From: an uncultured Gammaproteobacteria bacterium
GTDB lineage: Bacteria; Patescibacteriota; Microgenomatia; Levybacterales; UBA12049
DNA: 38,127 bases
Reading direction: 5' to 3'
Assembly (NCBI GenBank): GCA_964469995.1
Contig: CAYYAC010000001.1
Span: 1-38,127 of the forward strand
Shown: one piece after another, positions 1-37,853 of the stretch
How the letters are laid out: the number at the start of each line of letters is the position of its first letter
How positions within the stretch are numbered: the stretch's first letter is position 1
The notes under the pieces: model-generated
Database searches by the model: none
What the model was told of the DNA's origin: nothing
Seen by the model: only the letters and a program-made list of their open reading frames with translations
Program-made: the position numbers and the translations under genes

Positions 1-1371
1 CTTTTGGGAAAACAGTTTTGGGGAAAGCTTGGAGGATTAATTTCCGCAGCATTTTATATGTATGCTCCTTATCATGCAGTTGAAATATATGTTAGGGGAG
101 ACGTTTCCGAATTTTGGGCATATGCTTTTATTCCTCTTGTTTTTTTAGGAATTTATAAAGTATTTAAAACAAAAGGAAATTTTTTCTGGGTAATAGTTTC
201 AGCTATTGGATATTCAGGAATTATTCTTTCTCATAATTTAACAGCGATGATGGTTTCTCCCTTCTTGCTTTTCATGTCTTTGGTATTTATTCTTGCTTCC
301 TATAAAAAAGGAGACAAGCATACTTTATATTCAATTATTCTTTCTCTGTTTATTGGTCTTTTGATTTCCGCTTTCTACTTTATTCCTGCACTGCGTGAGC
401 AAAGATATACAAATGTTTTGTCCCAAATAGGCGGAGGAGCAGATTTTAAAGATCATTTTGTTTGTCTTTCTCAATTGTGGCAAAGTACATGGGGATATGG
501 AGGTTCTGCTCCTGGATGTTTTGATGGAGTTTCCTTTGCTGTTGGAAAAATGCAAATAGTGTTGATAGCTTTAATACTCCTTTTGGCAAAGATACTAGTT
601 TTTACTAAAAAGATTTCAAAGAAAGATGAAAAGATTAAGCTTTTAATGTTTTCACTTTTTGGTCTTTTGATTTCTGTTTTTATTATGCTGCCAATTTCTG
701 ATTTTGTCTGGAGTAGGGTTCCACTCATGGCGTTTTTTCAATATCCATGGAGATTTTTAATGATGAGTTCTTTCTTTATTTCTATTATTGCCGGAGGAAT
801 TCTTTGGACTATTAGATGTTTTAGTAAGAATAATTTATTGAGTTACTTAGTATTTGTGATAGTTGTGATTTCTTTGTTTTTCTTTGAAGCTAAACTATTT
901 AATCCTCAGACAATATTTAACAACAGTTCAGATGTCTATACAAATCAACATATGCTTAACTGGACTACCTCGAGGATTTCAGATGAATATATGCCAAGAG
1001 ATTTTCCAAAGCCCTCAATTGAAAAAGATGTAGTAAGTAGTAGGTTTACTTTTATAAAAGAAGATGTAGTTATTCTAAGAAAGACAGAGGATACGCAAAA
1101 TATAACTCTTGATGTTAATGCAATAAACAGATCCAACATTCATTTTAATATTGCATATTTTCCAGCATGGAGATTAACATTGGACGGAAATGATATAGGT
1201 GGAATAGCTAGGAAAGGTTATGATGTAAATATAACAAAAGGGAAGCACATCATTAGTATAACTTTTGTTCAAACATCAGTTGAAAAATTTTCAGATGTGC
1301 TATCCGTGATAGGTTTAATTGTTATAATTGCTGGCACTGTGTTTTACAGAAAGAAAACCAATAATGGATAA
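1..1371 (+). CDS. Family-A polytopic membrane protein, putative GT-C-like glycosyltransferase (5'-truncated by window edge)
   Basis: The frame is open from base 1; the track start at 4 is only an in-frame TTG. The protein has many hydrophobic helices. Motifs APYHAVEIYVRGDV, ILSHN, SAFYFIPAL and YPWRFL, plus the C-terminal AYFPAW..LDG...KGKH module and final TM helix, align with the CDSs at 16652, 24868 and 29855. About 100 N-terminal residues, including the THDG loop, should lie upstream of the window. Confidence 0.8.
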   Translation, partial: LLGKQFWGKLGGLISAAFYMYAPYHAVEIYVRGDVSEFWAYAFIPLVFLGIYKVFKTKGNFFWVIVSAIGYSGIILSHNLTAMMVSPFLLFMSLVFILASYKKGDKHTLYSIILSLFIGLLISAFYFIPALREQRYTNVLSQIGGGADFKDHFVCLSQLWQSTWGYGGSAPGCFDGVSFAVGKMQIVLIALILLLAKILVFTKKISKKDEKIKLLMFSLFGLLISVFIMLPISDFVWSRVPLMAFFQYPWRFLMMSSFFISIIAGGILWTIRCFSKNNLLSYLVFVIVVISLFFFEAKLFNPQTIFNNSSDVYTNQHMLNWTTSRISDEYMPRDFPKPSIEKDVVSSRFTFIKEDVVILRKTEDTQNITLDVNAINRSNIHFNIAYFPAWRLTLDGNDIGGIARKGYDVNITKGKHIISITFVQTSVEKFSDVLSVIGLIVIIAGTVFYRKKTNNG

Positions 1372-2074
1372 AGTAGGAGAATTATCAATCTTTTTTCCTT
1401 TTTGGAATGAAGAAAAAAACATTGAAGAAGTTGTAAAAAAAGCAATTCCTGTTGCGCAAAAAGTTGCATTCAAATGGGAAATAATAATGGTTGATGATGG
1501 GTCATCGGATAAGACTCTTGATATAGCAAGAAAACTTGCTTCAGGTAATCCTAATCTAGTGGTTTTATCCGATTCCAGGAACAGAGGTTATGGAGCAGCA
1601 CTAAAAAGCGGATTTTCCGCAGCGCGTTATAAATTAGTTGTATTTAATGACGGTGATGGGCAATTTGATTTTTCGGAAGTTTCAAGGCTTATATCAAAAA
1701 TAGAAGAAGCGGATATAGTCATTGGTTTTAGAAAGAAACGTCTTGATAATTCTTTTAGGCATATGCTTATGAATTTTTTGAAAATTTGGGATTTTATACT
1801 ATTTCATCTTTATTTTAGAGATATTGACTGTGGTTTTAAACTTTTTAAAAAAGATGCACTTGATAAGATTATGCCTTTAAAGTCTGAGGGAGCCATGATA
1901 ACGACAGAGCTTCTAGCGAAAGCGAAAAAGAATAAGCTAAAAATAGAGCAAGTTGAGGTGTCACATTTTCCAAGAATTTATGGAAATCAAAGTGGGGGGA
2001 ATTTAAGAGTAATAGTACGTGCAATAAGAGAAAGTTTTATAATTTGGAAAGATATTAATTATGGAAGACGTTGA
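1364..2074 (+). CDS. GT2 glycosyltransferase, Dpm1/GtrB/ArnC-like polyprenyl-phosphate sugar synthase
   Basis: Motifs IIMVDDGSSDKT, NRGYGAALKSG, FNDGDGQFD (DxD) and IDCGFKLFKK match the GT2 Dpm1-like architecture. The ATG at 1364 overlaps the upstream stop (ATGGATAA). The track's TTG start at 1328 is less likely. Confidence 0.75.
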   Translation: MDKVGELSIFFPFWNEEKNIEEVVKKAIPVAQKVAFKWEIIMVDDGSSDKTLDIARKLASGNPNLVVLSDSRNRGYGAALKSGFSAARYKLVVFNDGDGQFDFSEVSRLISKIEEADIVIGFRKKRLDNSFRHMLMNFLKIWDFILFHLYFRDIDCGFKLFKKDALDKIMPLKSEGAMITTELLAKAKKNKLKIEQVEVSHFPRIYGNQSGGNLRVIVRAIRESFIIWKDINYGRR

Positions 2075-3515
2075 CATTGCTATCATTACAAAAAGGTCTA
2101 TAAAAGGAGTTTTTGCGCTAACTTCTAGAACATTTTTTGTACAAGTTGTTGGTTTTGTTTCAAATCTTCTGCTTACTATATTTTTATCCCCCTCTGTTTT
2201 TGGAATATTTTTTATAGTGTCTGCAGCTATTGCTTTTCTTTCCTACTTTTCAGATATAGGGCTTGCTGCGGCATTAATTCAAAAGAAAGAACAAATAACA
2301 GACGAAGAGTTAAAGACTACTTTTACAATCCAACAAACTATGGTTGTAGGTGTGTCGATAATTGCTCTTGTTCTATCTGGATATGTTGCTTCTTTTTATC
2401 ATCTGCAAGAAAATGGAGTATGGCTTTTTAGAGCGTTGGTTGTTGCATTTTTTCTGTCATCATTTAAAACAATCCCGTCTATAATACTTGAAAGGGAGCT
2501 TAGTTTTGAGAAATTGGTTATCCCTCAGATTGCAGAAACACTTTTTTTTAATGTGACCGCGGTGGTTCTGGCAATGAAAGGTTATGGAGTTGAGAGCTTT
2601 ACCATTGCTGTTCTTGCTAGGGGAATAGTAGGCGTGATATCTATTTATATAATAAGCCCGTGGAGAATGGGTTTTGCCTTTTCAAGACCAGCCGCGAAGC
2701 ACCTCTTGTCTTTTGGCATACCATTTCAGGCAAATAGCTTCTTAGCTTTAATAAAAGATGATTTATTAGTGGCTTACATTGGCAAGGTTTTACCTCTGGC
2801 TCAAGTAGGTTATATTGGTTTTGCGCAAAAATGGTCACTAACGCCTTTGAGGCTCATTATGGATAACGTTATACGTATAACTTTTCCTTCTTTTGCCAGA
2901 CTGCAGCATGATGAGAATGCCCTAGCAAAAGGAATAGAAAAATCAATATTTGCATCCTGTTTTGTCATATTTCCTGCCCTTGTGGGGCTTGTTGTTCTTT
3001 CTCCGTACTTTATTGATCTAATTCCAAAGTACAGTAAATGGGAGCCAGCTCTTTTTTCGCTAGCATTTTTCTCCTTGAATTCTGCGCTGTCTTGCGTGTC
3101 AACGCCTCTTACAAACGCGCTTAATGCAGTTGGGAAGATAAAAGTATCACTTTATCTTATGATATTCTGGACAGCGGCTACATGGATTTTAACCCCAATT
3201 GCTATTATGGTTTGGGGATTTAATGGGGTTTCTATAGTGTCTGCAATTGTTGCTTTTTCTGTGGTTGGGGTAGTTTACTTAACTAAGAAATATATTTATT
3301 TCAGTATTTTGCAAGTTACGGCTATTCCTGCCATAAGTGCAATTTTTATGGGTACAATTGTTTATTTTCTAAGTCCTCAAATTATCAAGAATTTTCCAAC
3401 TCTCATTCTTATGATAATACTCGGCATTATGATATACTTTTTTACAATGTTTACATTAGCAAGAAAACAAATAATTGATGATGTAAATTTAGTCAGAAGA
3501 AATCTGCAAAAATAA
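2061..3515 (+). CDS. MOP-superfamily (Wzx-like) polysaccharide/oligosaccharide flippase
   Basis: 484 aa with about 12-14 hydrophobic segments. The N-terminus SIKGVFALTSRTFFVQVVGFVSNLLLTIFLSPSVFGIFF and the later GIPFQANSFLALIKDDLL are typical of polysaccharide biosynthesis (Polysacc_synt) proteins. It overlaps the stop of the upstream GT2 by 14 nt. Confidence 0.75.
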   Translation: MEDVDIAIITKRSIKGVFALTSRTFFVQVVGFVSNLLLTIFLSPSVFGIFFIVSAAIAFLSYFSDIGLAAALIQKKEQITDEELKTTFTIQQTMVVGVSIIALVLSGYVASFYHLQENGVWLFRALVVAFFLSSFKTIPSIILERELSFEKLVIPQIAETLFFNVTAVVLAMKGYGVESFTIAVLARGIVGVISIYIISPWRMGFAFSRPAAKHLLSFGIPFQANSFLALIKDDLLVAYIGKVLPLAQVGYIGFAQKWSLTPLRLIMDNVIRITFPSFARLQHDENALAKGIEKSIFASCFVIFPALVGLVVLSPYFIDLIPKYSKWEPALFSLAFFSLNSALSCVSTPLTNALNAVGKIKVSLYLMIFWTAATWILTPIAIMVWGFNGVSIVSAIVAFSVVGVVYLTKKYIYFSILQVTAIPAISAIFMGTIVYFLSPQIIKNFPTLILMIILGIMIYFFTMFTLARKQIIDDVNLVRRNLQK

Positions 3516-3516
3516 A

Positions 3517-4419
3517 ATGAAACTTTCCGTTGTTATTTCTGCTTATAATGCACAGGATAAAATTGAAGACTGTTTAAAATCAGTTCGTTTTGCAGACGAA
3601 ATCATCGTTATAAATAATTCTTCTCAGGATAAAACTGAAGAAATCGCAAAAAAATACACTTCCAAAGTATTTACTCGTATAAACAACTTGATGTTGAACG
3701 TAAATAAAAATTTTGGTTTTTCCAAGGCATCAGGTGAATGGATTTTAAATCTTGATGATGACGAAAGGGTAACGGCTGAACTTGAAAAAGAAATAAAAGC
3801 TACAATTAGAAATGATGATAAAAATATTCAAGGATACTATATTCCTAGGAAGAATATCATTTTTGGTAAATGGATAGAACATACAGGGTGGTACCCAGAT
3901 CCGCAGCTTCGCTTATTTAGAAAAGGAAAGGGAAAATTTGCAGAAAAACATGTGCACGAGATGATTGATATTGATGGGAAAGTTGAATATCTCAAAGAGC
4001 CAATGATTCATTTCAATTATACCTCTGTGTCTCAGTTTTTGGTTAAAATGACTAATATTTATGTCCCAAACGAAGCAGATGTTAAAATATCACAAGGCTA
4101 CAAAGTAGATTTTGCGGATTCAATTAAATTTCCACTAAGGGAGTTTTTGTCTAGATTTTTTGCACGGCAGGGGTATAAAGATGGATTCCACGGCTTAATG
4201 CTTTCTCTTCTTATGGCTTTTTATCATTTTGCCATATTTGCACTTATTTGGGAGAAGCAGGGCTTTGAGGAAATTGAAAGAGGGAATATTCTTATAAAAT
4301 CTTCAACAGAAATCAAAGATGCCGGCAAAGAAATTTCATACTGGATTAGAAATGAAAAAATAGAAAGCACAAAGAACCCCGTTAAAAAAATCCTCTATAA
4401 AACATTAATACGCAAATGA
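3517..4419 (+). CDS. GT2 glycosyltransferase, WaaE/KdtX-like subgroup with hydrophobic C-terminal tail
   Basis: Motifs MKLSVVISAYNAQDKIEDCLKSVRFADEIIVINNSSQDKT, LDDDERV (DxD), YPDPQLRLFRKG and the tail GLMLSLLMAFYHFAIFALIW. It is paralogous to the CDSs at 5329 and 26496. Confidence 0.75.
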   Translation: MKLSVVISAYNAQDKIEDCLKSVRFADEIIVINNSSQDKTEEIAKKYTSKVFTRINNLMLNVNKNFGFSKASGEWILNLDDDERVTAELEKEIKATIRNDDKNIQGYYIPRKNIIFGKWIEHTGWYPDPQLRLFRKGKGKFAEKHVHEMIDIDGKVEYLKEPMIHFNYTSVSQFLVKMTNIYVPNEADVKISQGYKVDFADSIKFPLREFLSRFFARQGYKDGFHGLMLSLLMAFYHFAIFALIWEKQGFEEIERGNILIKSSTEIKDAGKEISYWIRNEKIESTKNPVKKILYKTLIRK

Positions 4420-5336
4420 AAAGCGTCTTTGTATCTATAATCAACTTTAACGGAAAAGAAAATACCCTTTCTTGTCTTTCTCAGCTTGATAAGGTAAATA
4501 AGAATGGTCTAGACATCACTGCTATTGTAATTGATAACGCGTCTTCAGAAGAATTTGAGATTAATCAAAGTTTTTTAAAGAATATTCCGCTTGTTTTTAT
4601 AAAAAATAAAGAGAATTTAGGTTTTGCAAAAGGACACAACGTTGGGATAAATTATGCGATGTCTCACGGAGCAGATTTTGTGGTTATTCTAAATAATGAT
4701 ACCCTTCTTGATAAAGATTTTATTAGGTACTTAGTTGATGCTACTAAAACAGACCCAAAGGCAGGAATCGTTGCTCCTAAAATATATTTTGCTAAAGGAT
4801 TTGAGTACCATAAAGATAAATATAAAGAAGATGAGAAAGGGAAAGTTTTTTGGTACGTAGGGGGTCAAATGGACTGGGCCAATGTGATTGGTCATCATAG
4901 AGGAGTTGATGAGGTAGATGAAGGCCAGTATGATTCTCTTTGCGAAACTGAATATGCCAGCGGATGCTGTATGCTTTTGTCCGCAGATGTTATTAATCAG
5001 ACTAAAGGATTTGATTCCAGGTACTTCCTTTATTATGAGGACAGTGATTTGTGTCAAAGGGCAAAAGAAGCTGGATTTAAGATAATATATGCTCCAAAGG
5101 CTGTAATTTGGCATAAAAATGCAGGTTCGGTGGGAGGATCGGGATCTCCTTTGCAAGATTACTATATTACAAGGAATAGAATGTTTTTTGGAATAAAATA
5201 TGCACCTTTGCGTTCAAAAGCTGCCCTTATTAGAGAGAGCATTAGGATTTTATCAAGTGGAAGAAAATGGCAAAAAAGGGGAGTAATTGATTTCTATCTT
5301 AGAAAATTTAATAAGGGGAGTTTTAAAAATGAATAA
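4416..5336 (+). CDS. GT2 glycosyltransferase, rhamnosyltransferase-like (WbbL/RfbF-like subgroup)
   Basis: Motifs VIDNASSEE, NLGFAKGHNVG, VILNNDT, SGCCMLLSADV and YYEDSDLCQRAKEAGFKIIYAPKAVIWHK. ATGA overlap with the upstream gene. Confidence 0.75.
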   Translation: MKSVFVSIINFNGKENTLSCLSQLDKVNKNGLDITAIVIDNASSEEFEINQSFLKNIPLVFIKNKENLGFAKGHNVGINYAMSHGADFVVILNNDTLLDKDFIRYLVDATKTDPKAGIVAPKIYFAKGFEYHKDKYKEDEKGKVFWYVGGQMDWANVIGHHRGVDEVDEGQYDSLCETEYASGCCMLLSADVINQTKGFDSRYFLYYEDSDLCQRAKEAGFKIIYAPKAVIWHKNAGSVGGSGSPLQDYYITRNRMFFGIKYAPLRSKAALIRESIRILSSGRKWQKRGVIDFYLRKFNKGSFKNE

Positions 5337-6084
5337 ATTATCAGCAATTGTAATAGCAAAAAATGAAGAAAATAGAATCGCAGATTGTTTAGATTCTCTA
5401 TCTTTTTGTGATGAAATAATTGTTGTTGATAATGATTCAAAAGATAGAACTGCCGAGGTTGCTCAGAGATTGGGAGCAAAGATTGTAAAATCAAATGATG
5501 ATAATTTTTCAAATCTTCGCAATCTAGGATTAAGAAGAGCTACGTATGATTTTGTTTTTTACGTAGATGCGGATGAAAGAGTAGATAGTAATTTGAGAGA
5601 AAATATTAAGCAAGTTTTAAAAAGTGCTTCTCCTACGGATTTTTATAAGGTCTCAAGGAAGAATTTTTATTTAGGAAATAATGAATGGCCAAAAATTGAA
5701 AAAATGGAAAGGCTTTTTAGAAAAAGTCAATTAAGGGGTTGGAAAGGTGAGCTTCATGAAAGCCCACAGATAAATGGAGAATCTGAGCAACTTAATGGAT
5801 TCTTGTTGCATTATACCCACAGGAATCTTTCTGAAATGCTTAAAAAAACAATTTTATGGTCAAAAACAGAAGCAGAGCTAAGATATAATGCACGGCATCC
5901 TAAAATGACTTGGTGGAGATTTCCAAGGGTTATGATAACAACCTTTTTTGATTACTATATAAGGCAAGAGGGATATAAGATAGGGACGGCAGGTTTGGTA
6001 GAAAGTATGTACCAAGCTTTTAGTATTTTCGTGACTTACGCAAGACTATGGGAACTTCAAAATGCAAAAGATAGAAATGATTAA
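5329..6084 (+). CDS. GT2 glycosyltransferase, WaaE/KdtX-like subgroup
   Basis: Motifs MNKLSAIVIAKNEENRIADCLDSLSFCDEIIVVDNDSKDRT and VDADERV. The ATG at 5329 follows a GGGGAG Shine-Dalgarno (5315-5320) and overlaps the upstream stop (ATGAATAA). The track's TTG start at 5287 is rejected. Confidence 0.75.
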   Translation: MNKLSAIVIAKNEENRIADCLDSLSFCDEIIVVDNDSKDRTAEVAQRLGAKIVKSNDDNFSNLRNLGLRRATYDFVFYVDADERVDSNLRENIKQVLKSASPTDFYKVSRKNFYLGNNEWPKIEKMERLFRKSQLRGWKGELHESPQINGESEQLNGFLLHYTHRNLSEMLKKTILWSKTEAELRYNARHPKMTWWRFPRVMITTFFDYYIRQEGYKIGTAGLVESMYQAFSIFVTYARLWELQNAKDRND

Positions 6085-8416
6085 GAAACTTTTAATTAGG
6101 TTTTGGCCCGTGCTTTTTATATTTTTGTTGTGGTTTGTTTTTGCTTACCCATATTTTATAAAAGGGCTTGCGCCTTATTCATCATCATATCAATTAAATA
6201 ATTTTGCTCCATGGTCTGCATATCCGCAGTTTGCAGGACCTGTAAAAAATGGAGCAATGCCAGATGTTACAACGCAAATTTTACCTTGGAGACATTTGGC
6301 TATTCAGATTTGGAAACAAGGCGTTATTCCTCTTTGGAATCCCTACAGTTTTGCAGGAACGCCTCTTCTCGCAAATTATCAATCAGCAGCTCTTTCTCCT
6401 TTTAATATTTTATTTTTTCTTTTTCCTTTTGTTGATGGGTGGAGCATTCTAATACTATTGCAGCCTCTTCTTGCAGGAATGTTTACTTACCTTTTTGTTC
6501 GCTCTCTAGGGAAAACTAAATTAGCAAGTACTATTTCCTCTGTTTCTTTTATGTTCTGTGGTTTTTTAACTGTCTGGATGGATTATGGTACTTTGGGATA
6601 TGCAATCCTTTTTCTTCCACTATCTCTTTATTTTGTAGAGCAATACTTTAATACGCAAAAGATAAAATCTTTAATTTTTCTTTCACTATCCATCCCTCTA
6701 TCTTTTTTTAGCGGACATTTTCAAATAAGTATTTATTTTTTCCTAACTCTATTGTTGTATGTTGTTTTTAAATCATTTATTAATAAAAACTTAAAGGCTT
6801 TTTTAAAGCTTTGCTTATTTATATTTTTTGGTGTTTTAATATCAATGCCACAACTTTTGCCTTCAATAGAATTTTATACGCAGTCATTTAGGAGTGATAT
6901 ATTTCAAAAAGAAGAAGTAATCCCTTTTTCATACTTACCGACACTTTTATCGCCTGATCTTTTTGGTAATCCAGTAACAAGAAATGATTGGTTTGGACAT
7001 TATGCGGAATGGAACGGATTTATAGGAATTTTTCCCTTGTTTTTATCTTTTTATTTTTGGTGGGCCAAAAAGAAAATTCAAGGTCTATTTTTCTTTATAA
7101 CAGGGATTGTCGCTTTGCTTTTTTCCTTAAATTCTCCATTTGCAGATTTCTTAGTCTTTCTAAAAATACCAGTTTTATCAGGCAGCGCTGGCAGTAGGGG
7201 CATTGTTGTTTATAGCTTTATGTTCTCTGTTCTTTCTGCCTTTGGTTTTGATCAGCTGTTTTTGGATATTAAAGATAAGAAATTTAGCAGAGTGCTTATT
7301 TTTTTAATATCTACTCTTTTTATATTTATTTTGCTTTGGGTTTTAGTTTATTCAAGAACTTTTATACCATGGGATAAGACTTCAATTGCTAGAAGCAATC
7401 TAATTCTTCCTACCTCCATTTTTGTAGCGGGCTTTGTAATTGTAGCCCTGTCCACCTTAAATAAAAAACTTTTATATATCTGCTCTTTTCTTATATTGCT
7501 TTTGGTATCTTTTGATATGCTTCGCTTTGCCATAAAATGGCAAGCATTTGAGCAAAAGAGTCTTATATTTGCTGATACTCCGGCATCAAAAGAATTTGCA
7601 AAAATTGCAGGTCAAGATAGGTCAATGAGTAATTTAGAAGCTGGGGTTGGTGATTATTATAATCTTTTATCTCTTGAAGGATACGACGCATTGTATATAA
7701 AACGATACGGGGAATTTGCTGCATCTATTTCCAATGGAACAATTAGTGAGTCGGCAAGGTCCGTTGTACTTTTTCCAAAAGATAGTCCTAATACCTCGGC
7801 CATTATAAATTTGCTGGATGTAAAATATGTAATTCATAAATTTTCTGATGGTAGGAATAATTGGACTTTCCCTTTTTGGACCTATCCTGTTTCTCAGTTT
7901 GAACAAATTTCAAAAGACAGCGGTTACGAATTTTATCAAAACAATGATTCCTTTGGTCATGTTTTTTTATCAGGAAATTATAAGGTTATTAAAGACCCTC
8001 AGGAGATAATTAAAACATTGACATCAAAAGATATAAATTTAAAAAAAGAAATAATATTGGAAAAAGATCCCAATATAAAACAAACCAATTCAGAAATTGG
8101 AAGTGCAAATATTATTAAATATTCTCCAAGTGAGGTTGAAATAGAAGTTAATGCAAGTAGTTCTGGTTTATTATTTTTGTCTGATAATTACTACAATGGT
8201 TGGAATGCAACTGTTGATGGAGTCAGTACTCCAATTTATAGAGCGGATTTTAGTTTTAGAGCGGTTCCTGTTAAGGAAGGAAAATATTTAGTTAGATTTA
8301 CTTACCAGCCTTGGAGTTTTTATTTTGCGGTATTTCTGGCGATTGTTGGTGGATTGGGAATTGTAATTACTTTCTTTTTTTCTTCCAAAATTCTAGTTCC
8401 GAAATCTTCATCTTAG
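6062..8416 (+). CDS. YfhO-family GT-C membrane glycosyltransferase
   Basis: 784 aa, polytopic. The hallmark PLWNPYSFAGTPLLANYQSAALSPFNILFFLFPF is present, with an acidic loop PDVTTQILPW before it and a C-terminal YYNGWNATVDG...EGKYLVRFTY module plus a terminal TM helix. An alternative in-frame ATG at 6077 would give an ATGATTAA overlap with the upstream stop. Confidence 0.8.
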   Translation: MQKIEMIKKLLIRFWPVLFIFLLWFVFAYPYFIKGLAPYSSSYQLNNFAPWSAYPQFAGPVKNGAMPDVTTQILPWRHLAIQIWKQGVIPLWNPYSFAGTPLLANYQSAALSPFNILFFLFPFVDGWSILILLQPLLAGMFTYLFVRSLGKTKLASTISSVSFMFCGFLTVWMDYGTLGYAILFLPLSLYFVEQYFNTQKIKSLIFLSLSIPLSFFSGHFQISIYFFLTLLLYVVFKSFINKNLKAFLKLCLFIFFGVLISMPQLLPSIEFYTQSFRSDIFQKEEVIPFSYLPTLLSPDLFGNPVTRNDWFGHYAEWNGFIGIFPLFLSFYFWWAKKKIQGLFFFITGIVALLFSLNSPFADFLVFLKIPVLSGSAGSRGIVVYSFMFSVLSAFGFDQLFLDIKDKKFSRVLIFLISTLFIFILLWVLVYSRTFIPWDKTSIARSNLILPTSIFVAGFVIVALSTLNKKLLYICSFLILLLVSFDMLRFAIKWQAFEQKSLIFADTPASKEFAKIAGQDRSMSNLEAGVGDYYNLLSLEGYDALYIKRYGEFAASISNGTISESARSVVLFPKDSPNTSAIINLLDVKYVIHKFSDGRNNWTFPFWTYPVSQFEQISKDSGYEFYQNNDSFGHVFLSGNYKVIKDPQEIIKTLTSKDINLKKEIILEKDPNIKQTNSEIGSANIIKYSPSEVEIEVNASSSGLLFLSDNYYNGWNATVDGVSTPIYRADFSFRAVPVKEGKYLVRFTYQPWSFYFAVFLAIVGGLGIVITFFFSSKILVPKSSS

Positions 8417-8618
8417 TTTTTGCAAAAGCAAATAAAAATATAATATCTGCAATTCCAAAAGTATTTACAATCATTAGTGCAAAAAGTATTACAAACCAGT
8501 TTTTTTGTTTGTATGCAGCCGATCTATAAAGGGCTAATCCTTTCCAAAAGAATGTCCAAAGTCCAATAATAAAATATCCAAGAGGAGGAACTTGCTGAAA
8601 AGTTGTATCTAGGTTCAT
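8367..8618 (-). CDS. Small two-helix membrane protein, DUF5652-like
   Basis: 83 aa from the internal ATG at 8618. The core FWKGLALYRSAAYKQKNWFVILFALMIVNTFGIADIIFLF resembles the W-K-G-x-A-L-[WY]-[KR]-x-A...WF......NT.GI...IYLF pattern I recall for DUF5652 proteins of CPR bacteria. The 126-aa long form would run into the divergent GT4 gene. The 3' end overlaps the YfhO gene's 3' end by 50 nt. Confidence 0.55.
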   Translation of the reverse strand: MNLDTTFQQVPPLGYFIIGLWTFFWKGLALYRSAAYKQKNWFVILFALMIVNTFGIADIIFLFAFAKTKMKISELEFWKKKRK

Positions 8619-8625
8619 TAAATTA

Positions 8626-8654
8626 ACAATAACATAGGGATTTAAGCTTTGCAA
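8626..8654 (-). promoter_or_regulatory. Putative promoter for the DUF5652-like gene (-35 TTGCAA, 17-nt spacer, -10 TATTGT, ATG 7 nt downstream)
   Basis: Read on the minus strand: TTGCAA (8654-8649), then agcttaaatccctatgt, then TATTGT (8631-8626), then taattta, then ATG (8618). Hexamer matching only, in AT-rich DNA. Confidence 0.3.
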
Positions 8655-8676
8655 TAGGTGTAAAAGTTGATAGAAT
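8649..8676 (+). promoter_or_regulatory. Putative promoter for the GT4 gene (-35 TTGCAA, 16-nt spacer, extended -10 TGaTAGAAT, ATG 7 nt downstream)
   Basis: TTGCAA at 8649-8654, TG at 8668-8669 and TAGAAT at 8671-8676, with the start codon at 8684. No Shine-Dalgarno lies between them. Hexamer matching only. Confidence 0.35.
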
Positions 8677-8683
8677 AAAGCTA

Positions 8684-9742
8684 ATGAAGATTGGAATTTT
8701 TGATCCCTACCTAGATGATCTAGGGGGTGGGGAAAAGTACATGGCAAGCATAGCTAGCTGTTTGTCTGATGAACATGAAGTTTCTATTTTTTGGGATAAC
8801 GCTCAAGACGTTTACGCTATTAGTAAGCGCTTCTCTATTGACTTATCAAAAGTTGCAATTAAAAAAAATATTTTTTCCAAGAATACTGGCTTATTTAAAA
8901 GACTTTTAGAAAGCAAAAAATATGACGCGTTTATTGTACTAAGTGATGGAAGTATTCCGCTTGTTGCTTGTAAGTTATTCTTGCATATTCAGCAGCCATT
9001 TGTGTCTTTGCCCGGTGGCCCAAAATTAAAACTCAAGCTTAAGAGAGTAAAAAAAATAATAGTTAATTCAGATTTTACAAAGAGCTATATTGATAAGGCA
9101 TTAGGTGTAAATAGTGTAGTTTTGTATCCTCACATCGAAATAAAAGCCAAGAAAACTAAAAAAAAGAATATTATTCTAACTGTTGGCAAATTTAGATATA
9201 AAAATACTCCCTTGGATGATTTTAAGAAACAAAAAGTAATGATTGATGCATTTAAAGAGTTAGTAAATAACGGATTGAAAGATTGGGAATTTATTATTGT
9301 TACAGGTTTTAGTAGCGAACATAAAAATGAATTTGAAAAATTAAAAGATGAAGTAGGAGAGTATCCAGTAAAATTTTTTGTAGATAAGACAAATGATAAG
9401 CTTTGGGATATTTACAGTGAAGCAAAAATTTACTGGCATGCTGCTGGTTTTGATGAAGATTTAATTTCTCACCCTGAATTCGCGGAGCATTTTGGAATAT
9501 CTACTGTTGAAGCAATGGGAGCAGGCGCAGTGCCAGTTGTAATAAGAGCAGGAGGCCAAAAGGAAATTGTAACGGATAAAAGCGGATTTCTTTGGGATAA
9601 TTTAGAAGAATTGAAGGACAAAACTGTAAAATTAATAAAAGATGATAAATTGCTCGAGAGAATATCAGCCGAAGCTGTTTTAAGAGCAGACTATTTTACA
9701 GGTGAAAGATTTTGCAGGGAACTTAAAGAAATTATTAAATGA
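8684..9742 (+). CDS. GT4 (Glycos_transf_1) retaining-type glycosyltransferase
   Basis: 352 aa. It has the EX7E motif EHFGISTVEAMGAGAVPVV and a GT-B style N-terminus MKIGIFDPYLDDLGGGEKY. Confidence 0.8.
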   Translation: MKIGIFDPYLDDLGGGEKYMASIASCLSDEHEVSIFWDNAQDVYAISKRFSIDLSKVAIKKNIFSKNTGLFKRLLESKKYDAFIVLSDGSIPLVACKLFLHIQQPFVSLPGGPKLKLKLKRVKKIIVNSDFTKSYIDKALGVNSVVLYPHIEIKAKKTKKKNIILTVGKFRYKNTPLDDFKKQKVMIDAFKELVNNGLKDWEFIIVTGFSSEHKNEFEKLKDEVGEYPVKFFVDKTNDKLWDIYSEAKIYWHAAGFDEDLISHPEFAEHFGISTVEAMGAGAVPVVIRAGGQKEIVTDKSGFLWDNLEELKDKTVKLIKDDKLLERISAEAVLRADYFTGERFCRELKEIIK

Positions 9743-11974: not shown

Positions 11975-12910
11975 ATGAATATAAGCGTTGTTATACCAAA
12001 TTATAATGGAGAAAATCTTTTGCGGAAAAATCTCCCTAAAATTATAGAAGAAATGGCTTCTTATAAAAAGGGGCAAGTAGAGGTAATTGTTATTGATGAT
12101 TTTTCAAAAGACAAGAGCATAGAAGTTCTTGAAGGATTTAAAAATAAATATAAAAACTTTAAGTTTTTGGTCAACAGTAGAAACTTGGGATTTTCTTCAA
12201 CAGTAAATAATGGAGTGTCTCATGTTAGCGGCGAGATTATTCTGCTTTTAAATACTGATGTTTATCCAGAAAAAGGATTTTTGGAGCCATTGCTTTTGCA
12301 TTTTAATAATCAGGAAATATTCGCAGTAGGGTGTATGGAGAAAAGCATAGAAGGAGAAAAAATAGTTTTGAGAGGAAGAGGGATTGGAAAATGGCAAAGA
12401 GGTTTTTTGATGCATTCCAGAGGAGAAGTAGATAAAAAAGAAACATTGTGGGTAAGTTGTGGAAGCGGAGCTTTTAGAAAAAGCATATGGGACAAGATAG
12501 GTGGATTAAATAGTTTATATAACCCTTTTTATTGGGAAGATATAGACTTATCTTATAGGGCTCAAAAAGTTGGATACAAAGTTTTATTTGAGCCGGAAAG
12601 TGTTGTTTTCCATGAGCATGAAAAAGGAGCTATAAAAAATGCATATTCAGGATTTAAAATAAAGACCATAGCCTACAGAAATCAATTTATTTTTGTTTGG
12701 CTAAATGCAACAGATTTTAAAATAAGGGTAAGTCATTTAATTTATCTTCCGTACCATATAATAAAAGCCTTATTTAGAGTAGATGGAGCATTCTTTTTAG
12801 GTCTTTTTAGTGCTTTAATAATGGTGCCAAAAGTTATAAAATTGGATTTTAAGCTGCACAAGCAATTTAGAGTAAAAGACAGAGAAGTTGTCAAAAATAT
12901 CGCAATATGA
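11975..12910 (+). CDS. GT2 glycosyltransferase
   Basis: Motifs MNISVVIPNYNGENLL, VIVIDDFSKDKS, LGFSSTVNNG, LLNTDV and YWEDIDLSYRAQKVGYKVLFEPESVVFH. The ATG at 11975 lies 1 nt after the upstream stop. The track start at 11957 would overlap that gene. Confidence 0.75.
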   Translation: MNISVVIPNYNGENLLRKNLPKIIEEMASYKKGQVEVIVIDDFSKDKSIEVLEGFKNKYKNFKFLVNSRNLGFSSTVNNGVSHVSGEIILLLNTDVYPEKGFLEPLLLHFNNQEIFAVGCMEKSIEGEKIVLRGRGIGKWQRGFLMHSRGEVDKKETLWVSCGSGAFRKSIWDKIGGLNSLYNPFYWEDIDLSYRAQKVGYKVLFEPESVVFHEHEKGAIKNAYSGFKIKTIAYRNQFIFVWLNATDFKIRVSHLIYLPYHIIKALFRVDGAFFLGLFSALIMVPKVIKLDFKLHKQFRVKDREVVKNIAI

Positions 12911-13617
12911 AGTTATCCATAATTATTCCCGTTTTCAACGAAGAAAAAACAATTCAGAAAGTTCTCCAAAGAGTCATAGAGGTTAAAATACCAGGTGTAG
13001 TAAAAGAAATAATTGTTGTAGATGATGGTTCATCGGATAAAACAGCAGATAATATCCGTAGCGCAAAACTTAAAGAAATTAAATTTATAGAACACAGTGA
13101 AAATATGGGTAAGGGAGCTGCAGTAAAAACAGGCATAGAAAATGCAACAGGAGATTATATAGTAATTCAAGATGCTGATTTGGAATATGACCCTCAAGAT
13201 CTGATAAAACTAATGGAAGAGATATTGCAGGGAAGAGCAAAAGTTGTATACGGAACAAGGCTTAATCGTTTGCCTAACTTTTCCAGAGACGAAAGAAAGC
13301 CTCTTTTTATAGTTCATTACTTTGGTAATAGGTTTTTAAGTCTATTAACAAGTGTCTTATATGGCCAATGGCTTACGGATATGGAAACTTGTTATAAACT
13401 TTTTCCGGCAGTCGCAGTAAGGGGAATGAATCTTAAATCAAGAAGATTTGATTTTGAGCCTGAAATTACAACAAAGCTTTTAAAAAAAGGGTATAAAATC
13501 AAAGAAATTCCAATTACTACAAATCCGCGAGGATATGACGAAGGCAAAAAACTCCATGCGATTAAAGATGGAACAATTGCTCTTTTGACACTTATTAAAT
13601 ATAGATTTGTTGACTAA
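12907..13617 (+). CDS. GT2 glycosyltransferase, Dpm1-like polyprenyl-phosphate sugar synthase candidate
   Basis: Motifs MKLSIIIPVFNEEKTI, IIVVDDGSSDKT, NMGKGAAVKTG, IQDADLEYDP, TDMETCYKLF and FDFEPEIT. ATGA overlap with the upstream gene. A polytopic membrane gene follows directly. Confidence 0.7.
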   Translation: MKLSIIIPVFNEEKTIQKVLQRVIEVKIPGVVKEIIVVDDGSSDKTADNIRSAKLKEIKFIEHSENMGKGAAVKTGIENATGDYIVIQDADLEYDPQDLIKLMEEILQGRAKVVYGTRLNRLPNFSRDERKPLFIVHYFGNRFLSLLTSVLYGQWLTDMETCYKLFPAVAVRGMNLKSRRFDFEPEITTKLLKKGYKIKEIPITTNPRGYDEGKKLHAIKDGTIALLTLIKYRFVD

Positions 13618-27251: not shown

Positions 27252-28222
27252 AAATTTTAGTAACAGGCGGAGCGGGGTATATTGGAAGTTTTATGGTAAA
27301 ACGTCTTCTAGAAAGAGGAGATGAGGTTTTTATAATAGATAATTTATCTAGGGGGCATAAAGAAGCAATAGACAGCAGAGCCGCTCTTCTAGTGGGAGAT
27401 CTTCTTGATAAAAATTTTCTTTCAAGTGTTTTTTTAGAAAATAAATTTGATGCTATTGTTCATTTTGCGGGGTATATCTCAATGGGAGAGTCAGTAGAGA
27501 AGCCTTTTGAATATTTTAATAATAATGTTTTTGGATCATTGAATCTTATAAACCAAGCCAAGGAAAATAATTTGGATAATTTCATTTTTTCGTCTACCGC
27601 TGGAGTTTATGGAAATCCAATTCAAGTTCCTATAAAAGAAGATCACGAAAAAAATCCAACAAATCCATATGGTGAATCAAAACTTATGGTAGAAAAAATA
27701 CTTAGCTGGTTTAATAAAACTCACGGCTTATCTTTTACTGCTCTTAGATATTTTAATGCGGCAGGGGCAGCGCTTGATGGGACGTTAGGAGAAAATCATA
27801 ATCCCGAAACCCACATAATTCCAAATGCAATAAAAGCAGCATTGGAAAATAAGCCTTTTTCTCTTTTTGGAAATGACTATGATACGAAAGACGGTACATG
27901 CGTTAGAGATTATATTCATGTTTTAGACTTAGTTGAAGCTCATGTCCTTGCAATAGAAAAGATGAAAAAAGATAAGGGCGCATATTTCTATAATGTCGGT
28001 ACTGGAAATGGATATTCAAATAGAGAAATTTTGGAAATGATTAAAAAAGTATCAGGAATTGACTTTGAAATTAAAGAAGAAAACAGGAGGCCTGGGGATG
28101 CAAATGTTTTAATTGCAGACTCAACACTTATTAAAGATCAACTGGGTTTCTCTCCTAAATATTCTGACCTTGAGACAATAGTTAATACTGCATGGAAATG
28201 GCACTCCGGACAAAAACAATGA
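27248..28222 (+). CDS. galE: UDP-glucose (or UDP-hexose/HexNAc) 4-epimerase, SDR family
   Basis: 324 aa. Motifs MKILVTGGAGYIGS (Rossmann), FSSTAGVYG and PYGESK (YxxxK), with a GalE-like length and C-terminus. ATGA overlap upstream. Confidence 0.85.
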   Translation: MKILVTGGAGYIGSFMVKRLLERGDEVFIIDNLSRGHKEAIDSRAALLVGDLLDKNFLSSVFLENKFDAIVHFAGYISMGESVEKPFEYFNNNVFGSLNLINQAKENNLDNFIFSSTAGVYGNPIQVPIKEDHEKNPTNPYGESKLMVEKILSWFNKTHGLSFTALRYFNAAGAALDGTLGENHNPETHIIPNAIKAALENKPFSLFGNDYDTKDGTCVRDYIHVLDLVEAHVLAIEKMKKDKGAYFYNVGTGNGYSNREILEMIKKVSGIDFEIKEENRRPGDANVLIADSTLIKDQLGFSPKYSDLETIVNTAWKWHSGQKQ

Positions 28223-28746
28223 AACAAAAATTGCTTATAATTTTTGCCTTCCTATTTATTTTTCTTTACTCTTCAGCATCAAGCAACGCTAAATCTTCTT
28301 ATGTACTTCCTTATCCTTCTTCCATGCCGGGAAGTTTCTCTTACAAGCCCCATCTTTTGTTAGAAACCTTATCTAAGTATTGGTATTTTGGAAACTTTGG
28401 CCAATTTACATATAATCTTAAACAATCAGATAAATATTTGGTTGAAGCAAAAACGCTTTTTGAATATAACCAGTATTTATTAGGCTATAATGCTTTGCAA
28501 AAATCTGATTTATTTTTTAATCAAACTCTTCCAAACTTAGATAAAGCAAGAAAAGAAGGAAAAGATATATCTGAAAACTTAAAACTTTTAAAATCTGCTT
28601 CTGAAAAACACATAGAAGTTTTGATAAAGATTGGAGATGAGGTTCCGTCTAATTTTACATGGCAGCCTGAGAATGCTTCTGCATCTGTTTTGAATTTGAA
28701 ATCTTCTATAGAAAATTCAATTAAAATAAGAAAGAGTTACTTATGA
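28219..28746 (+). CDS. Secreted/envelope helical protein of unknown function
   Basis: The start at 28219 (ATGA overlap with the galE stop) gives the signal-peptide-like N-terminus MKQKLLIIFAFLFIFLYSSASSNA. The mature part begins SSYVLPYPSSMPGS and is rich in K/E/L (helical). It resembles a YxLPYPG-type N-terminal motif that I recall in many CPR hypothetical proteins. I cannot confirm the family identity. Confidence 0.6.
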   Translation: MKQKLLIIFAFLFIFLYSSASSNAKSSYVLPYPSSMPGSFSYKPHLLLETLSKYWYFGNFGQFTYNLKQSDKYLVEAKTLFEYNQYLLGYNALQKSDLFFNQTLPNLDKARKEGKDISENLKLLKSASEKHIEVLIKIGDEVPSNFTWQPENASASVLNLKSSIENSIKIRKSYL

Positions 28747-35835: not shown

Positions 35836-36582
35836 ATGCGCAACATTAAATTTTTATCTCTTGTTGTGCCTGCGTATAAGCAAGAAAAGACTATTGTTAA
35901 AGATTTGGAAAATCTTGATGCGATACTGAAATCCTTACCTTTTGATTATGAAATAATTGTTGTGGTTGATGGTTTTGTTGATAAAACACTTGAGAATGCG
36001 AAGAAAATAAAAAATAACAAAATAAAAGTGCTAGGTTATGAGAAAAATCAGGGAAAAGGATATGCGGTTAAGTATGGAATGGCAAAAACTAAAGGAGACA
36101 TAGTAGGTTTTATAGATGCAGGGATGGACATTGACGCGACAGGGATAGCAATTCTTATTGACTCAATGATATGGAAAAATGCAGATATTATGGTTGGAAG
36201 CAAATTACATCCAGAGTCAAAAGTAGAGTATCCGGCAATAAGAAGAATTTTAACTTGGGGTTATAGATCTCTCACAGAGCTCATGTTTGGTTTCAGCATT
36301 AGAGATACTCAAGTCGGAGTCAAATTTTTTAGAAAAGAAGTAGCAAGGGCAGTATTTCCTAGAATAATTATAAAAGCCTTTGCTTTTGATGTTGAGGTTT
36401 TAGCTGTTGCAAGATTTTTGGGCTTTGACAGGATTTATGAGGGGCCAATAAAGCTTAATTTCAACAAGGACAGCAGCATAACTTCTTCAAATTTTTGGTA
36501 TATAATTTTTCTTATGCTTTGGGATACATTTGCTGTTTTCTATCGTCTGAAAATAACACATTTTTACAAAAGAAATAAATGA
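35836..36582 (+). CDS. GT2 glycosyltransferase, Dpm1/GtrB-like polyprenyl-phosphate sugar synthase candidate with C-terminal TM helix
   Basis: Motifs LSLVVPAYKQEKTI, IIVVVDGFVDKT, NQGKGYAVKYG, IDAGMDID, RDTQVGVKFFRK, FAFDVEVL and the hydrophobic tail FWYIIFLMLWDTFAVFY. Confidence 0.7.
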   Translation: MRNIKFLSLVVPAYKQEKTIVKDLENLDAILKSLPFDYEIIVVVDGFVDKTLENAKKIKNNKIKVLGYEKNQGKGYAVKYGMAKTKGDIVGFIDAGMDIDATGIAILIDSMIWKNADIMVGSKLHPESKVEYPAIRRILTWGYRSLTELMFGFSIRDTQVGVKFFRKEVARAVFPRIIIKAFAFDVEVLAVARFLGFDRIYEGPIKLNFNKDSSITSSNFWYIIFLMLWDTFAVFYRLKITHFYKRNK

Positions 36583-37853
36583 AAGAAAATATAATAAAAC
36601 TTGCCAAACACCCTCTTATATTTGGCAGCACAGTTATTTTTGTGGGTTCAATGGCTGCGAGCGTATTTAACTATTTATTTAATCTGGCCTTAATAAGGAC
36701 ATTACCAGTTGCTGACTATGGTACATTTTCTTCTTTAATTTCTATCTTCAATATTTTTTCTGTATTCTCAATAGTCATAATAATGATTTTTTCAAAATTT
36801 ACCGCATCTTTAGTTGGGCAAAAGAGAGAAAAAGCTATTGGTTCATTGTTTATTTCAGGAACTATTTGGGTAGGAATTATGTCATTTGCTGTTTGTGTTG
36901 TTTTAGCTCTAGGTTCTGGGGAAATAGCAGGATTTTTAAATATAAACTCTATTGGACTTATTCTACTAACAATCTTAACCTTATTTTTTTCATTTCTACT
37001 TGCCGTTACTACCGGAATACTGCAGGGACTTTTAAAATTTAATTATTTCTCTTTTATAAATATAGCATCGTCTCTTGTTAAGCTTCTGTTTGGAATGTTA
37101 TTTATATTTTTGGGGTATAGGGTTTTTGGCGCAATATCTGCATTTTTACTTTCTGCAGTACTGGGATATATATTTGCAATAATTCCTCTTTATAAATTTT
37201 TAAAACATAAAGTTGAAGACGGTTTTACATTATCTTCTTTGCATAAAAAAGCATATTCATATGCATTTCCCGTTTTGCTTTCCAATATTGGAATAACTGC
37301 ATTAATATCTGCAGATATAATTTTGGTTAAACACTATTTTAATCCTACGGTTGCAGGGCAATATGCAGCACTGTCTTTAATGGGTAGATCTATATTTTAT
37401 CTTGTTTCTCCGATTTCTTCAGTACTTTTTCCTGTTATAGCTCAAAAGAAGGAAAGAAGAGAAAAAATTATAGGAACTCTTCTTTTGTCTATCTTTCTCG
37501 TAGGTTTTCCGGCAATAATTCTAAGTGCTTTCTATTTTGCATTTCCGCAAGTTGTACTATCTGTCCTTTCTCCTGGGAAAATATATCTTCCCCTGCTTAA
37601 TCTACTTGGTCCCTTTTCTGTTTTTATAATGCTTTATGCAATGTGTTTCCTCCTTAATAGCTTCTATCTTTCATTAGGAAAGACAAATGTTTTTATATTT
37701 ACAACAATTGGAGCAGTGTTGGAGTCTATTCTAATTGTCTTGTATCATGCAAGCATAACAGAGGTTATAAATGATTTGATTGTTGCTTCATTTTTACTTC
37801 TTATTAGCCTTTTGTTATACTATCAAAATGTCGCAAAGGATTCTAATTCTTAA
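36579..37853 (+). CDS. MOP-superfamily (Wzx-like) flippase, second copy
   Basis: 424 aa with about 12 hydrophobic segments. The N-terminus FGSTVIFVGSMAASVFNYLFNLALIRTLPVADYGTFSSL is typical of oligosaccharide flippase family proteins. ATGA overlap with the upstream Dpm1-like GT2. Confidence 0.7.
   Translation: MKENIIKLAKHPLIFGSTVIFVGSMAASVFNYLFNLALIRTLPVADYGTFSSLISIFNIFSVFSIVIIMIFSKFTASLVGQKREKAIGSLFISGTIWVGIMSFAVCVVLALGSGEIAGFLNINSIGLILLTILTLFFSFLLAVTTGILQGLLKFNYFSFINIASSLVKLLFGMLFIFLGYRVFGAISAFLLSAVLGYIFAIIPLYKFLKHKVEDGFTLSSLHKKAYSYAFPVLLSNIGITALISADIILVKHYFNPTVAGQYAALSLMGRSIFYLVSPISSVLFPVIAQKKERREKIIGTLLLSIFLVGFPAIILSAFYFAFPQVVLSVLSPGKIYLPLLNLLGPFSVFIMLYAMCFLLNSFYLSLGKTNVFIFTTIGAVLESILIVLYHASITEVINDLIVASFLLLISLLLYYQNVAKDSNS

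Follow-up and report, generated by a model that had tools for sequence, protein, structure and literature searches.

In Streptococcus pyogenes, GacK was proposed to carry the GlcNAc-phosphate-undecaprenol that the cytoplasmic enzyme GacI makes with GacJ, for use by GacL, a glycosyltransferase (GT) of the GT-C class, a proposal based on mutant phenotype (Rush et al. 2017, bioRxiv 10.1101/180810). The Wzx-type variant of the multicomponent transmembrane glycosylation system was subsequently formalized (Rismondo et al. 2021, PMC8035078). Haloferax volcanii assembles a glycan on dolichyl phosphate (Dol-P) through AglJ, AglG, AglI, and AglE, with AglR as the proposed flippase for Dol-P-mannose and Agl15 as the proposed flippase for a Dol-P-tetrasaccharide (Eichler 2013, PMC3871713). 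Nothing specific was found in the literature on clusters of flippase and glycosyltransferase genes in bacteria of the candidate phyla radiation (CPR). The window analyzed here, an entire contig of 38,127 bases (CAYYAC010000001.1; ~32% GC) from a member of the Levybacteria (CPR), carries two gene pairs in which a family 2 glycosyltransferase (GT2) adjoins a flippase of the multidrug/oligosaccharidyl-lipid/polysaccharide (MOP) superfamily. Both MOP proteins are most likely Wzx-type flippases for lipid-linked glycans, within a large envelope-glycosylation supercluster that is conserved in Microgenomatia.

The two pairs and their immediate neighbors are listed below; ppGT2 designates a predicted polyprenyl-phosphate GT2.

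4..1371, plus strand: GT-C membrane glycosyltransferase with a weak YfhO match (PF09586 9e-09), PF10131-like relatives, and ~9 hydrophobic segments; incomplete at the 5' end of the contig; shares 8 nucleotides (nt) with the gene that follows
1364..2074, plus strand: ppGT2_1, predicted polyprenyl-phosphate GT2 of the DPMS/GtrB/ArnC type, 236 amino acids (aa) (PF00535 1e-27; PDB matches to ArnC, GtrB, and DPMS)
2061..3515, plus strand: MOP1, Wzx-type flippase of the WzxC/TuaB (PF13440) kind, 484 aa, with a 14-helix model
3517-4419, 4416-5336, and 5287-6084, plus strand: three soluble GT2 genes, GT2_3517, GT2_4416, and GT2_5287 (Pfam GT2)
34139-35257, plus strand: polytopic GT-C-like gene 5' of the second pair, at least 8 hydrophobic segments, no Pfam match, conserved near MOP2 in relatives
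35280-35834, plus strand: RmlC-like cupin 5' of the second pair (PF00908 1.6e-13), conserved near MOP2 in relatives
35836..36582, plus strand: ppGT2_2, second predicted polyprenyl-phosphate GT2, DPMS type, 248 aa (PDB matches to DPMS and GtrB)
36579..37853, plus strand: MOP2, Wzx-type flippase of the PF01943 kind, 424 aa
37780..38127, plus strand: N terminus of a family 4 glycosyltransferase (GT4), cut at the contig end and resuming on contig C68; its start may be the ATG at 37828 (the orthologue in the relative G033 has 373 aa, PF00534 2e-31)

The open reading frames (ORFs) and their overlaps are those described in the original prediction from the DNA: the TGA of ppGT2_1 lies at 2072-2074 and the ATG of MOP1 at 2061 (14 nt), and ppGT2_2 and MOP2 share ATGA. 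The overlaps exist, but they are not distinctive, as overlaps occur at 21 of the window's 28 same-strand junctions, and another four are separated by 2 nt or less. Overlap was therefore rejected as a sign of special coupling. The suggestion that the pairs represent a repeated module was not borne out either. Duplication of a module was rejected because MOP1 and MOP2 are dissimilar (BLASTP E value of 8.4) and fall in separate clades of a tree; the two GT2s are 27% identical. The pairs had also been placed at both ends of the locus, which are in fact the two ends of the contig; in the contiguous relative G033 the cluster runs on at both sides.

ppGT2_1 matched the PDB structures of ArnC (1.5e-18, residues 5-215), GtrB (sll0501; 6.5e-12), and Pyrococcus DPMS (4.9e-11). 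ppGT2_2 matched DPMS (4.8e-11, residues 7-176) and GtrB (1.6e-07), with ArnC also among its best structures. The top NCBIfam matches of these proteins were PgfS, ArnC, AglJ, and PpgS, every one under the equivalog cut-off. No transmembrane helix was predicted in ppGT2_1 or ppGT2_2, and neither has a C-terminal anchor of the GtrB/ArnC/CsbB kind. A separate anchor protein (a DPM3- or GacJ-like small membrane ORF) is not encoded near either pair in the window, and the overlapping gene junctions leave no room for one. Judged by their sequences, both GT2s are anchor-less polyprenyl-phosphate glycosyltransferases of the DPMS/GtrB/ArnC type.

MOP1 scored 173 bits against PF13440 (1e-50) and 67 bits against PF01943, and MOP2 scored 55 bits against PF01943 (1e-14) and 43 bits against PF13440 (3.5e-11), all over the Pfam gathering score. 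Neither protein matched PF03023 (MurJ) in the Pfam scan. The NCBIfam matches of MOP1 were PRK10459 (WzxC-type, 1e-39), the O-glycosylation Wzx family (8e-32), and TuaB (1e-27), all under their cut-offs; MOP2 had no NCBIfam match. A search of PDB sequences returned no matches for either protein, and a fold search was therefore used. The AlphaFold2 model of MOP1 (pLDDT 83.9, pTM 0.82) has the 14-helix MOP fold, and Foldseek superposed it on MurJ with TM-scores of 0.78-0.81 (6nc6, 0.78/0.81) and on WzxE (9g9n) with a target-normalized TM-score of 0.81. The fold of MOP2 was checked by hydropathy alone, which gave ~12-14 hydrophobic segments.

In a tree of 62 sequences, MOP1, MOP2, and MOP3, a third Wzx-like protein of the genome, formed three separate, fully supported clades, and the genome's own MurJ clustered with Escherichia coli MurJ. 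MOP2 had no significant match to any E. coli Wzx. Its placement with WzxE was not used, because WzxE is the longest branch in the tree and the join is unreliable, and the placement of MOP3 with RfbX was set aside as a flagged, unreliable long-branch join. The list of MOP1 homologues comprised only close Levybacteria (at least 66% identity) and was uninformative for placement outside the CPR. Between this genome and the congener G003 (L069), MOP2 is 33% identical, whereas the adjoining GT2 and RmlC are 65-75% identical (the GT2 65%), and MOP2 lies on the opposite side of its GT2 in G003. From these identities it appears that MOP2 evolved fast or was replaced, as is typical for substrate-specific Wzx genes.

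The arrangement resembles GacI/J/K/L of S. pyogenes, a likeness that, as for AglR, was drawn from published descriptions. A cytoplasmic polyprenyl-phosphate GT-A enzyme, a Wzx-type MOP, and a GT-C are encoded together twice (4-1371/1364-2074/2061-3515 and 34139-35257/35836-36582/36579-37853), with the anchor-less GT-A adjoined by a Wzx-family MOP in place of GtrA and a GT-C in the cluster. Unlike the S. pyogenes system, the window has no GacJ-like partner, 15 GT-C genes of the YfhO, PF10131, and PMT_2 kinds, two unrelated MOPs, and a CPR host, and soluble elongating GT2 and GT4 proteins are tightly linked or fused to the MOPs. By analogy, the locus may also resemble the Agl pathway of H. volcanii, in which a DPM1-type GT2 starts the glycan on a polyprenol monophosphate, soluble glycosyltransferases extend it, and a Wzx-like protein is proposed to flip it; the third ppGT2 of the window matches AglJ best (1e-34, far under the family cut-off). 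It differs from Agl in its bacterial host and in that STT3/AglB was not detectable in the genome (the assembly, 89.7% complete, gave no match to PF02516), and the consumers would be YfhO/PF10131 GT-C proteins.

A further analogy may be drawn with GtrA/GtrB/GtrC and CsbB/GtcA/YfhO, in which a GtrB/CsbB-type GT2 and a YfhO-type GT-C serve outer-face glycosylation from a lipid-phosphate sugar. In contrast to those systems, the GT2s here lack the two C-terminal transmembrane helices, no stand-alone GtrA or GtcA is present, and a GtrA-type domain occurs only on a separate DPMS-like GT2. With classical Wzx proteins (WzxC, WzxE, and RfbX) and MurJ the MOPs share their fold, and MOP1 matches the WzxC profile. 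Unlike classical Wzx loci, the immediate cluster has no phosphoglycosyl transferase (PGT) or Wzy, the identity of MOP1 to WzxC is low (phmmer E value of 1.4e-19), and the genome has its own MurJ. Polyprenyl-phosphate sugars had been put forward in the original prediction as an unusual substrate class for MOP flippases. That class is not new, because Wzx-type flippases for monophosphate-linked sugars were already proposed in GacK (bioRxiv 10.1101/180810; PMC8035078) and in AglR and Agl15 (PMC3871713).

We propose that the MOPs flip a monophosphate-linked glycan begun by the adjoining anchor-less GT2, either a monosaccharide or, more likely, a briefly extended chain, which GT-C proteins then consume, a reading that we consider about evenly balanced between right and wrong. 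In this scheme the ppGT2 would load a sugar onto polyprenyl monophosphate at the cytoplasmic face. The lipid would then be flipped unchanged or, somewhat more likely for both pairs, after extension by the co-conserved soluble GT2 and GT4 proteins. The adjoining MOP would perform the flipping, and GT-C proteins of the YfhO, PF10131, or PMT_2 kinds would use the lipid at the outer face. The comparisons establish the gene identities, the folds, the conserved linkage, and the fusions; the direction of flow and the substrate are what we infer here, and the linked proteins might conceivably form a physical complex. The whole would be a Wzx variant of the multicomponent transmembrane glycosylation system, of the kind put forward for GacI/J/K/L, AglD/AglR/AglS, and Agl15.

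Conservation of the pairing was evaluated in 41 relatives of the same order, of which 31 are high-quality genomes and three are congeners. MOP1 orthologues (40-78% identity) were present in 32 of the 41, as well as in 20 of the 24 genomes sampled from the class, and at an E value of 1e-40 or lower in none of ~376 sampled genomes of other Patescibacteria classes. The order GT-C, ppGT2, MOP1 was contiguous in all 30 order-level loci, and most related loci overall had a GT-C gene 5' of the pair. A further set comprised 80 MOP1 loci from Levy-, Gottesman-, Chisholm-, and Woesebacteria, and 78 of these were informative for the upstream gene. A polyprenyl-phosphate GT2 lay immediately 5' of MOP1 in ~74 of the 78. 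About 50 of these GT2s were orthologues of ppGT2_1, often with the same short overlap, and ~24 were a paralogue (25-30% identity) in the same slot. Orthologues of ppGT2_1 directly 5' of MOP1 were 56-79% identical. All 26 relatives with an orthologue of ppGT2_1 also had MOP1, and the orthologue was missing from each of the 11 relatives in which MOP1 gave no strong (orthologue-level) match. MOP2 adjoined ppGT2_2, in either order, in ~26 of 28 related loci. The usual order in relatives is MOP2, ppGT2_2, GT4, sometimes with an RmlC gene between MOP2 and ppGT2_2; the order ppGT2_2, MOP2, GT4 occurs only in this genome and one congener. In these relatives the GT2-MOP link, whose frequency the original prediction had left as a point to check, is strong, and it is the firmest result of the analysis. 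On this comparative evidence the pairs are real, conserved, and functionally meaningful.

One possibility for the adjacency is that it is meaningless, merely an order inherited within a dense, same-strand island filled with glycosyltransferases. Glycosyltransferase candidates make up 26 of the 31 window genes, most junctions overlap, and the relatives are non-independent samples. However, the chance that both MOPs would lie beside a ppGT2 is ~4% by a rough hand estimate (three ppGT2s in ~31 genes), and the pairing outlasts both an inversion and the replacement of a paralogue. Independent domain fusions also argue otherwise, and we regard a meaningless adjacency as highly improbable.

The fusions are of two types. 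In relatives, a single protein of ~1,560 aa joins a DPMS-like GT2, a BcsA-like GT2, a MOP2-like domain, and a GT4.

Residues 1-230: DPMS-type GT2 module (PDB 5mlz 2.6e-23; 30% identical to ppGT2_1)
Residues 350-640: BcsA-like GT2 module with a QRSRW motif (PDB 7lby 3e-8)
Residues 755-1130: MOP module, nearest to MOP2 (E value of 7e-15)
Residues 1184-1540: GT4 module, most like the GT4 3' of MOP2 by sequence comparison
Loci of the four-module fusion: L199:3422-8104 (G034); L200:2628-7325, minus strand (G017); L201:1725-6555, minus strand (G037)

In G037 the four-module protein is divided into two genes (774 and 845 aa). The GT4 fragment at the end of the window is 46% identical to the N-terminal stretch of the GT4 module (fusion residues 1184-1276). 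The four-module family comprises 111 clusters at 90% identity from Microgenomates and other CPR groups, and ~900-aa forms with only MOP and GT4 also occur; the four-module fusion was not found in the assembly studied here. A polyprenyl synthetase gene lies ~1.4 kb 5' of the fusion in G034. The second type emerged from a search of long proteins with a MOP1-like domain, which returned two clusters, P0236 and P0237 (1,065 and 1,081 aa), in which a PF10131/YfhO-like GT-C is fused to a MOP1-like flippase. P0236 (L204:8001-11198) combines a PF10131 GT-C with the MOP1-like domain. Two independent samples yielded the identical P0236 sequence, and its gene comes first in an operon that continues with three GT2 genes, a GT4 gene, and one more GT2 gene.

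The prediction that each MOP works with its adjoining GT2 and feeds GT-C proteins gains support from these results because the adjacency is order-wide, the ppGT2 slot is refilled by a paralogue, MOP2 and ppGT2_2 remain adjacent despite the swap in order, fusions occur, and the 41 relatives showed no stand-alone GtrA other than one ambiguous 229-aa frame. Other parts of that prediction fared less well: a PGT, Wzy_C proteins, and a GtrA-type domain were found in the genome, MOP1 grouped with a classical Wzx, and a cargo larger than a monosaccharide fits better.

The genes around the window bear on these points. In G033, at least nine more genes, mostly encoding GT-C proteins, lie 5' of MOP1. On the 3' side of MOP2, a GT4, a PMT_2 gene, and a sugar-nucleotide block (equivalent to contig C40 of the genome studied here) follow on the same strand, and then a locus of the kind found here on contig C5. 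The C5 locus encodes four GT4 and two GT2 proteins, a 1,044-aa Wzy_C-like protein, a PMT_2 protein, ManC, a 232-aa PGT of the WbaP/PglC type, and a DUF4012 protein. The same-strand supercluster of G033 spans ~95 kb, with the PGT gene ~38 kb beyond MOP2. Both MOPs and the PGT occur on one contig, in that order, in G014, G017, G024, G025, G027, G030, G031, G033, and G035; strand and intervening genes were checked for G033. A 129-aa polytopic ORF without a family match (C5:9811-10200, L075) lies between a GT2 gene and a GT4 gene in the PGT locus.

The genome studied here (675 kb in 85 contigs) has one PGT gene, on C5, four Wzy_C proteins, on C5, C6, C7, and C20, one LCP gene, and a MurJ gene on C9 (PF03023, 231 bits). 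MOP3 (407 aa) is encoded directly after the Wzy_C gene on C6 (region L084:5911-11570), near dnaA, yidC, and jag, and has orthologues in only 14 of the 41 relatives. An RNase H-like gene and a gene for a 905-aa DUF4012 protein lie 3' of MOP3, and the DUF4012 gene of C5 lies 3' of the PGT gene. Among the relatives, 40 of 41 have a PGT, with or without MOP1, MOP2, or MOP3. For example, G011 (98% complete) has a WbaP-type PGT, and its only MOP is MurJ-like, with none of the Wzx type. Therefore, a PGT pathway can exist in this clade without a recognizable Wzx.

Several observations weigh against a monophosphate-linked cargo begun by the adjoining GT2. The co-occurrence of ppGT2_1 and MOP1 may reflect only the presence or absence of the whole island. 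The steadiest neighbors of MOP1 are the three soluble GT2s rather than the ppGT2, as in ordinary Wzx clusters: GT2_3517 lies directly 3' of MOP1 in 74 of the 80 loci, and the trio is retained at the class level. More distant orders of the class usually show the arrangement ppGT2, GT-C, MOP1, three GT2, GT4, so that a GT-C parts the ppGT2 from MOP1, and 4 of 14 class-level loci have no ppGT2 within ~7 kb. No flippase is encoded in the PGT locus itself, which shares a same-strand supercluster with the MOPs. In the tree, MOP1 and E. coli WzxC are sisters joined by long branches (support 99/91), and the members of the WzxC/TuaB family studied so far flip oligosaccharides linked to undecaprenyl pyrophosphate (Und-PP). 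The original prediction had asked where the MOPs stand relative to Wzx and MurJ: MOP2 forms its own clade, and neither protein is a MurJ, but MOP1 falls with classical WzxC. A gene for an LCP ligase, a family that uses pyrophosphate-linked polymers, adjoins the P0236 operon on the opposite strand. Finally, the fusions demonstrate a common pathway but no relation of substrate to product.

MOP1, and perhaps MOP2, might be ordinary Wzx proteins that flip an Und-PP unit primed by the WbaP-type PGT and extended by the soluble GT2 and GT4 proteins, with subsequent polymerization, ligation, or attachment to the wall by Wzy_C-like and LCP proteins. The ppGT2 and GT-C proteins would then only decorate the product, and their donors would reach the other side of the membrane through the GtrA domain fused to DPMS or by an unknown route. 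In addition to the profile matches and neighbors of MOP1 described above, this explanation is favored by the position of the PGT locus, contiguous with the island in G033 and on the contig of both MOPs elsewhere, and by the four Wzy_C proteins and the LCP in the genome. The distance of the PGT gene is no obstacle, since a remote initiating transferase is normal; wecA of E. coli K-12, for instance, belongs to the enterobacterial common antigen cluster, far from the O-antigen cluster that bears rfbX. However, the presence of the PGT in nearly all relatives whatever their complement of MOPs, and of a PGT without a Wzx-type MOP in G011, suggests that the PGT is independent of MOP1. Classical pathways could have other flippases, because MOP3 adjoins a Wzy_C gene and the genome also encodes MurJ. 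An ordinary Wzx function would also leave unexplained why the ppGT2 slot is kept through replacement by a paralogue, why MOP2 and ppGT2_2 stay adjacent through an inversion, and why ppGT2 and GT-C domains are fused to MOP domains. We treat it as the main alternative, though a somewhat doubtful one.

The original prediction had stressed that the locus lacks GtrA, PGT, and Wzy. None of the three was found in the window by Pfam, but the genome beyond it has the PGT and Wzy_C genes described above as well as a split gene for a DPMS::GtrA protein. The Pfam scan gave no PF04138 match in the window or in the whole assembly. In the relatives, one copy of PF04138 was found in 37 of 41, including all 31 high-quality genomes and all three congeners. 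The match always lay within a frame of 375-419 aa, as the C-terminal membrane domain of a DPMS-type GT2, save for a 229-aa frame in G035 and a sub-threshold match in G024. That the genome truly lacks GtrA was rejected, as a tblastn search with the DPMS::GtrA protein of a congener found the gene split between the end of C23 and the start of C78. The C23 portion (7717-8666) codes for the GT2 domain and the start of the membrane domain and is cut by the contig end. On C78, the first ~330 bases (reverse strand) code for the C-terminal end and are followed by an orthologue of the GT-C gene downstream in the congener. The DPMS::GtrA gene is flanked by an epimerase gene and a gene for a 514-aa GT-C, and it therefore resembles a second glycosylation system that is complete in itself. 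When every ORF of 90-220 aa was screened by hydropathy, nothing GtrA-like emerged. The absence of GtrA, PGT, or Wzy from a contig-sized window is weak evidence, and several of the statements offered in support of the original prediction are artefacts of contig and assembly limits.

A strict form of that prediction, which is a subset of the reading proposed here, is that the MOPs flip only polyprenyl-phosphate monosaccharides, as replacements for GtrA, and that the soluble glycosyltransferases downstream serve an unrelated step. The trio of GT-C, ppGT2, and MOP1 mirrors GacL, GacI, and GacK, the ppGT2s are anchor-less like GacI, and, the ambiguous 229-aa frame of G035 aside, none of the 41 relatives of the order yielded a stand-alone GtrA. 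These similarities notwithstanding, a small membrane partner resembling GacJ is not encoded, no MOP adjoins the third ppGT2 (12907-13617), and cytoplasmic GT4 and GT2 domains are fused to the MOPs or invariably beside them. The soluble GT2 trio gave weak NCBIfam matches to PglI, TuaG, and a rhamnosyltransferase and none to a DPMS-type profile; the three are probably cytoplasmic elongating transferases. Soluble GT2 and GT4 proteins act in the cytoplasm and are linked or fused to the MOPs; therefore, a cargo of more than one sugar is suggested. The three predicted elongating GT2s beside MOP1 likewise suggest an oligosaccharide rather than a monosaccharide, and we consider flipping of monosaccharides alone to be unlikely.

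A more far-reaching interpretation is that Microgenomatia have a PGT-independent pathway of archaeal style. A DPM1-type GT2 would start the glycan on polyprenyl phosphate, soluble GT2 and GT4 proteins would extend it, a MOP would flip it, and YfhO/PF10131 GT-C proteins, not STT3, would transfer it en bloc. This interpretation is speculative, and we would not expect it to hold. If true, it would represent the first bacterial pathway for polyprenyl-phosphate oligosaccharides. The ~1,560-aa fusion would then be the cytoplasmic half in one chain and would offer a natural single-chain synthase-flippase for the study of MOP proteins and monophosphate lipids.

The window as a whole is rich in glycosyltransferases. 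Its 31 genes are closely packed and all but one lie on the plus strand. Pfam scans upheld the predicted count of 15 GT-C-like polytopic proteins (three YfhO, six PMT_2, three PF10131, one weak GT87, and two without a family); the rest are nine GT2, three GT4 (8684-9742, 33100-34164, and the 3'-truncated 37780-38127), one epimerase, one RmlC-like cupin, and the two MOPs. Two further genes relate to the pairs.

6062..8416, plus strand: YfhO-family GT-C, 784 aa (PF09586 1e-23), in the conserved block 3' of MOP1; position kept in related loci
12907..13617, plus strand: third predicted polyprenyl-phosphate GT2, AglJ-like, 236 aa (PF00535 3e-35; TIGR04182 AglJ 1e-34 and PpgS 8e-21, both under cut-off), followed by a GT87-like GT-C

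Between the YfhO gene at 6062-8416 and the GT4 gene at 8684-9742 lies the one intergenic gap of any size in the island (8417-8683; 267 nt, AT-rich), possibly an internal promoter. Pfam gave no match for three conserved ORFs: 28192-28746, which encodes 184 aa with a signal-anchor-like N terminus, and 28743-29879 and 34139-35257, which are polytopic and GT-C-like, with a DIFNY motif in one and LDGVHYLNIAQWGY in the other.

The passage of polyprenyl-phosphate sugars across membranes is unsettled, and GacK, AglR, and Agl15 remain proposals. To our knowledge, the flippase activity of GtrA has never been shown biochemically, and we know of no identified flippase for eukaryotic Dol-P-Man or Dol-P-Glc. 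The cluster is a CPR-wide case of an already proposed Wzx-type arrangement and not a new substrate class. It provides class-wide comparative evidence that Wzx-type MOPs are wired to polyprenyl-phosphate GT2s and GT-C proteins, in the form of adjacency maintained through rearrangement, slot replacement, and fusions. It also supplies compact candidates, namely, pairs of an anchor-less GT2 with a MOP and single-chain fusions. In CPR bacteria, envelope glycans take up a large part of a small genome, as exemplified by the ~95-kb supercluster of G033 and the 675-kb total of the genome studied here.

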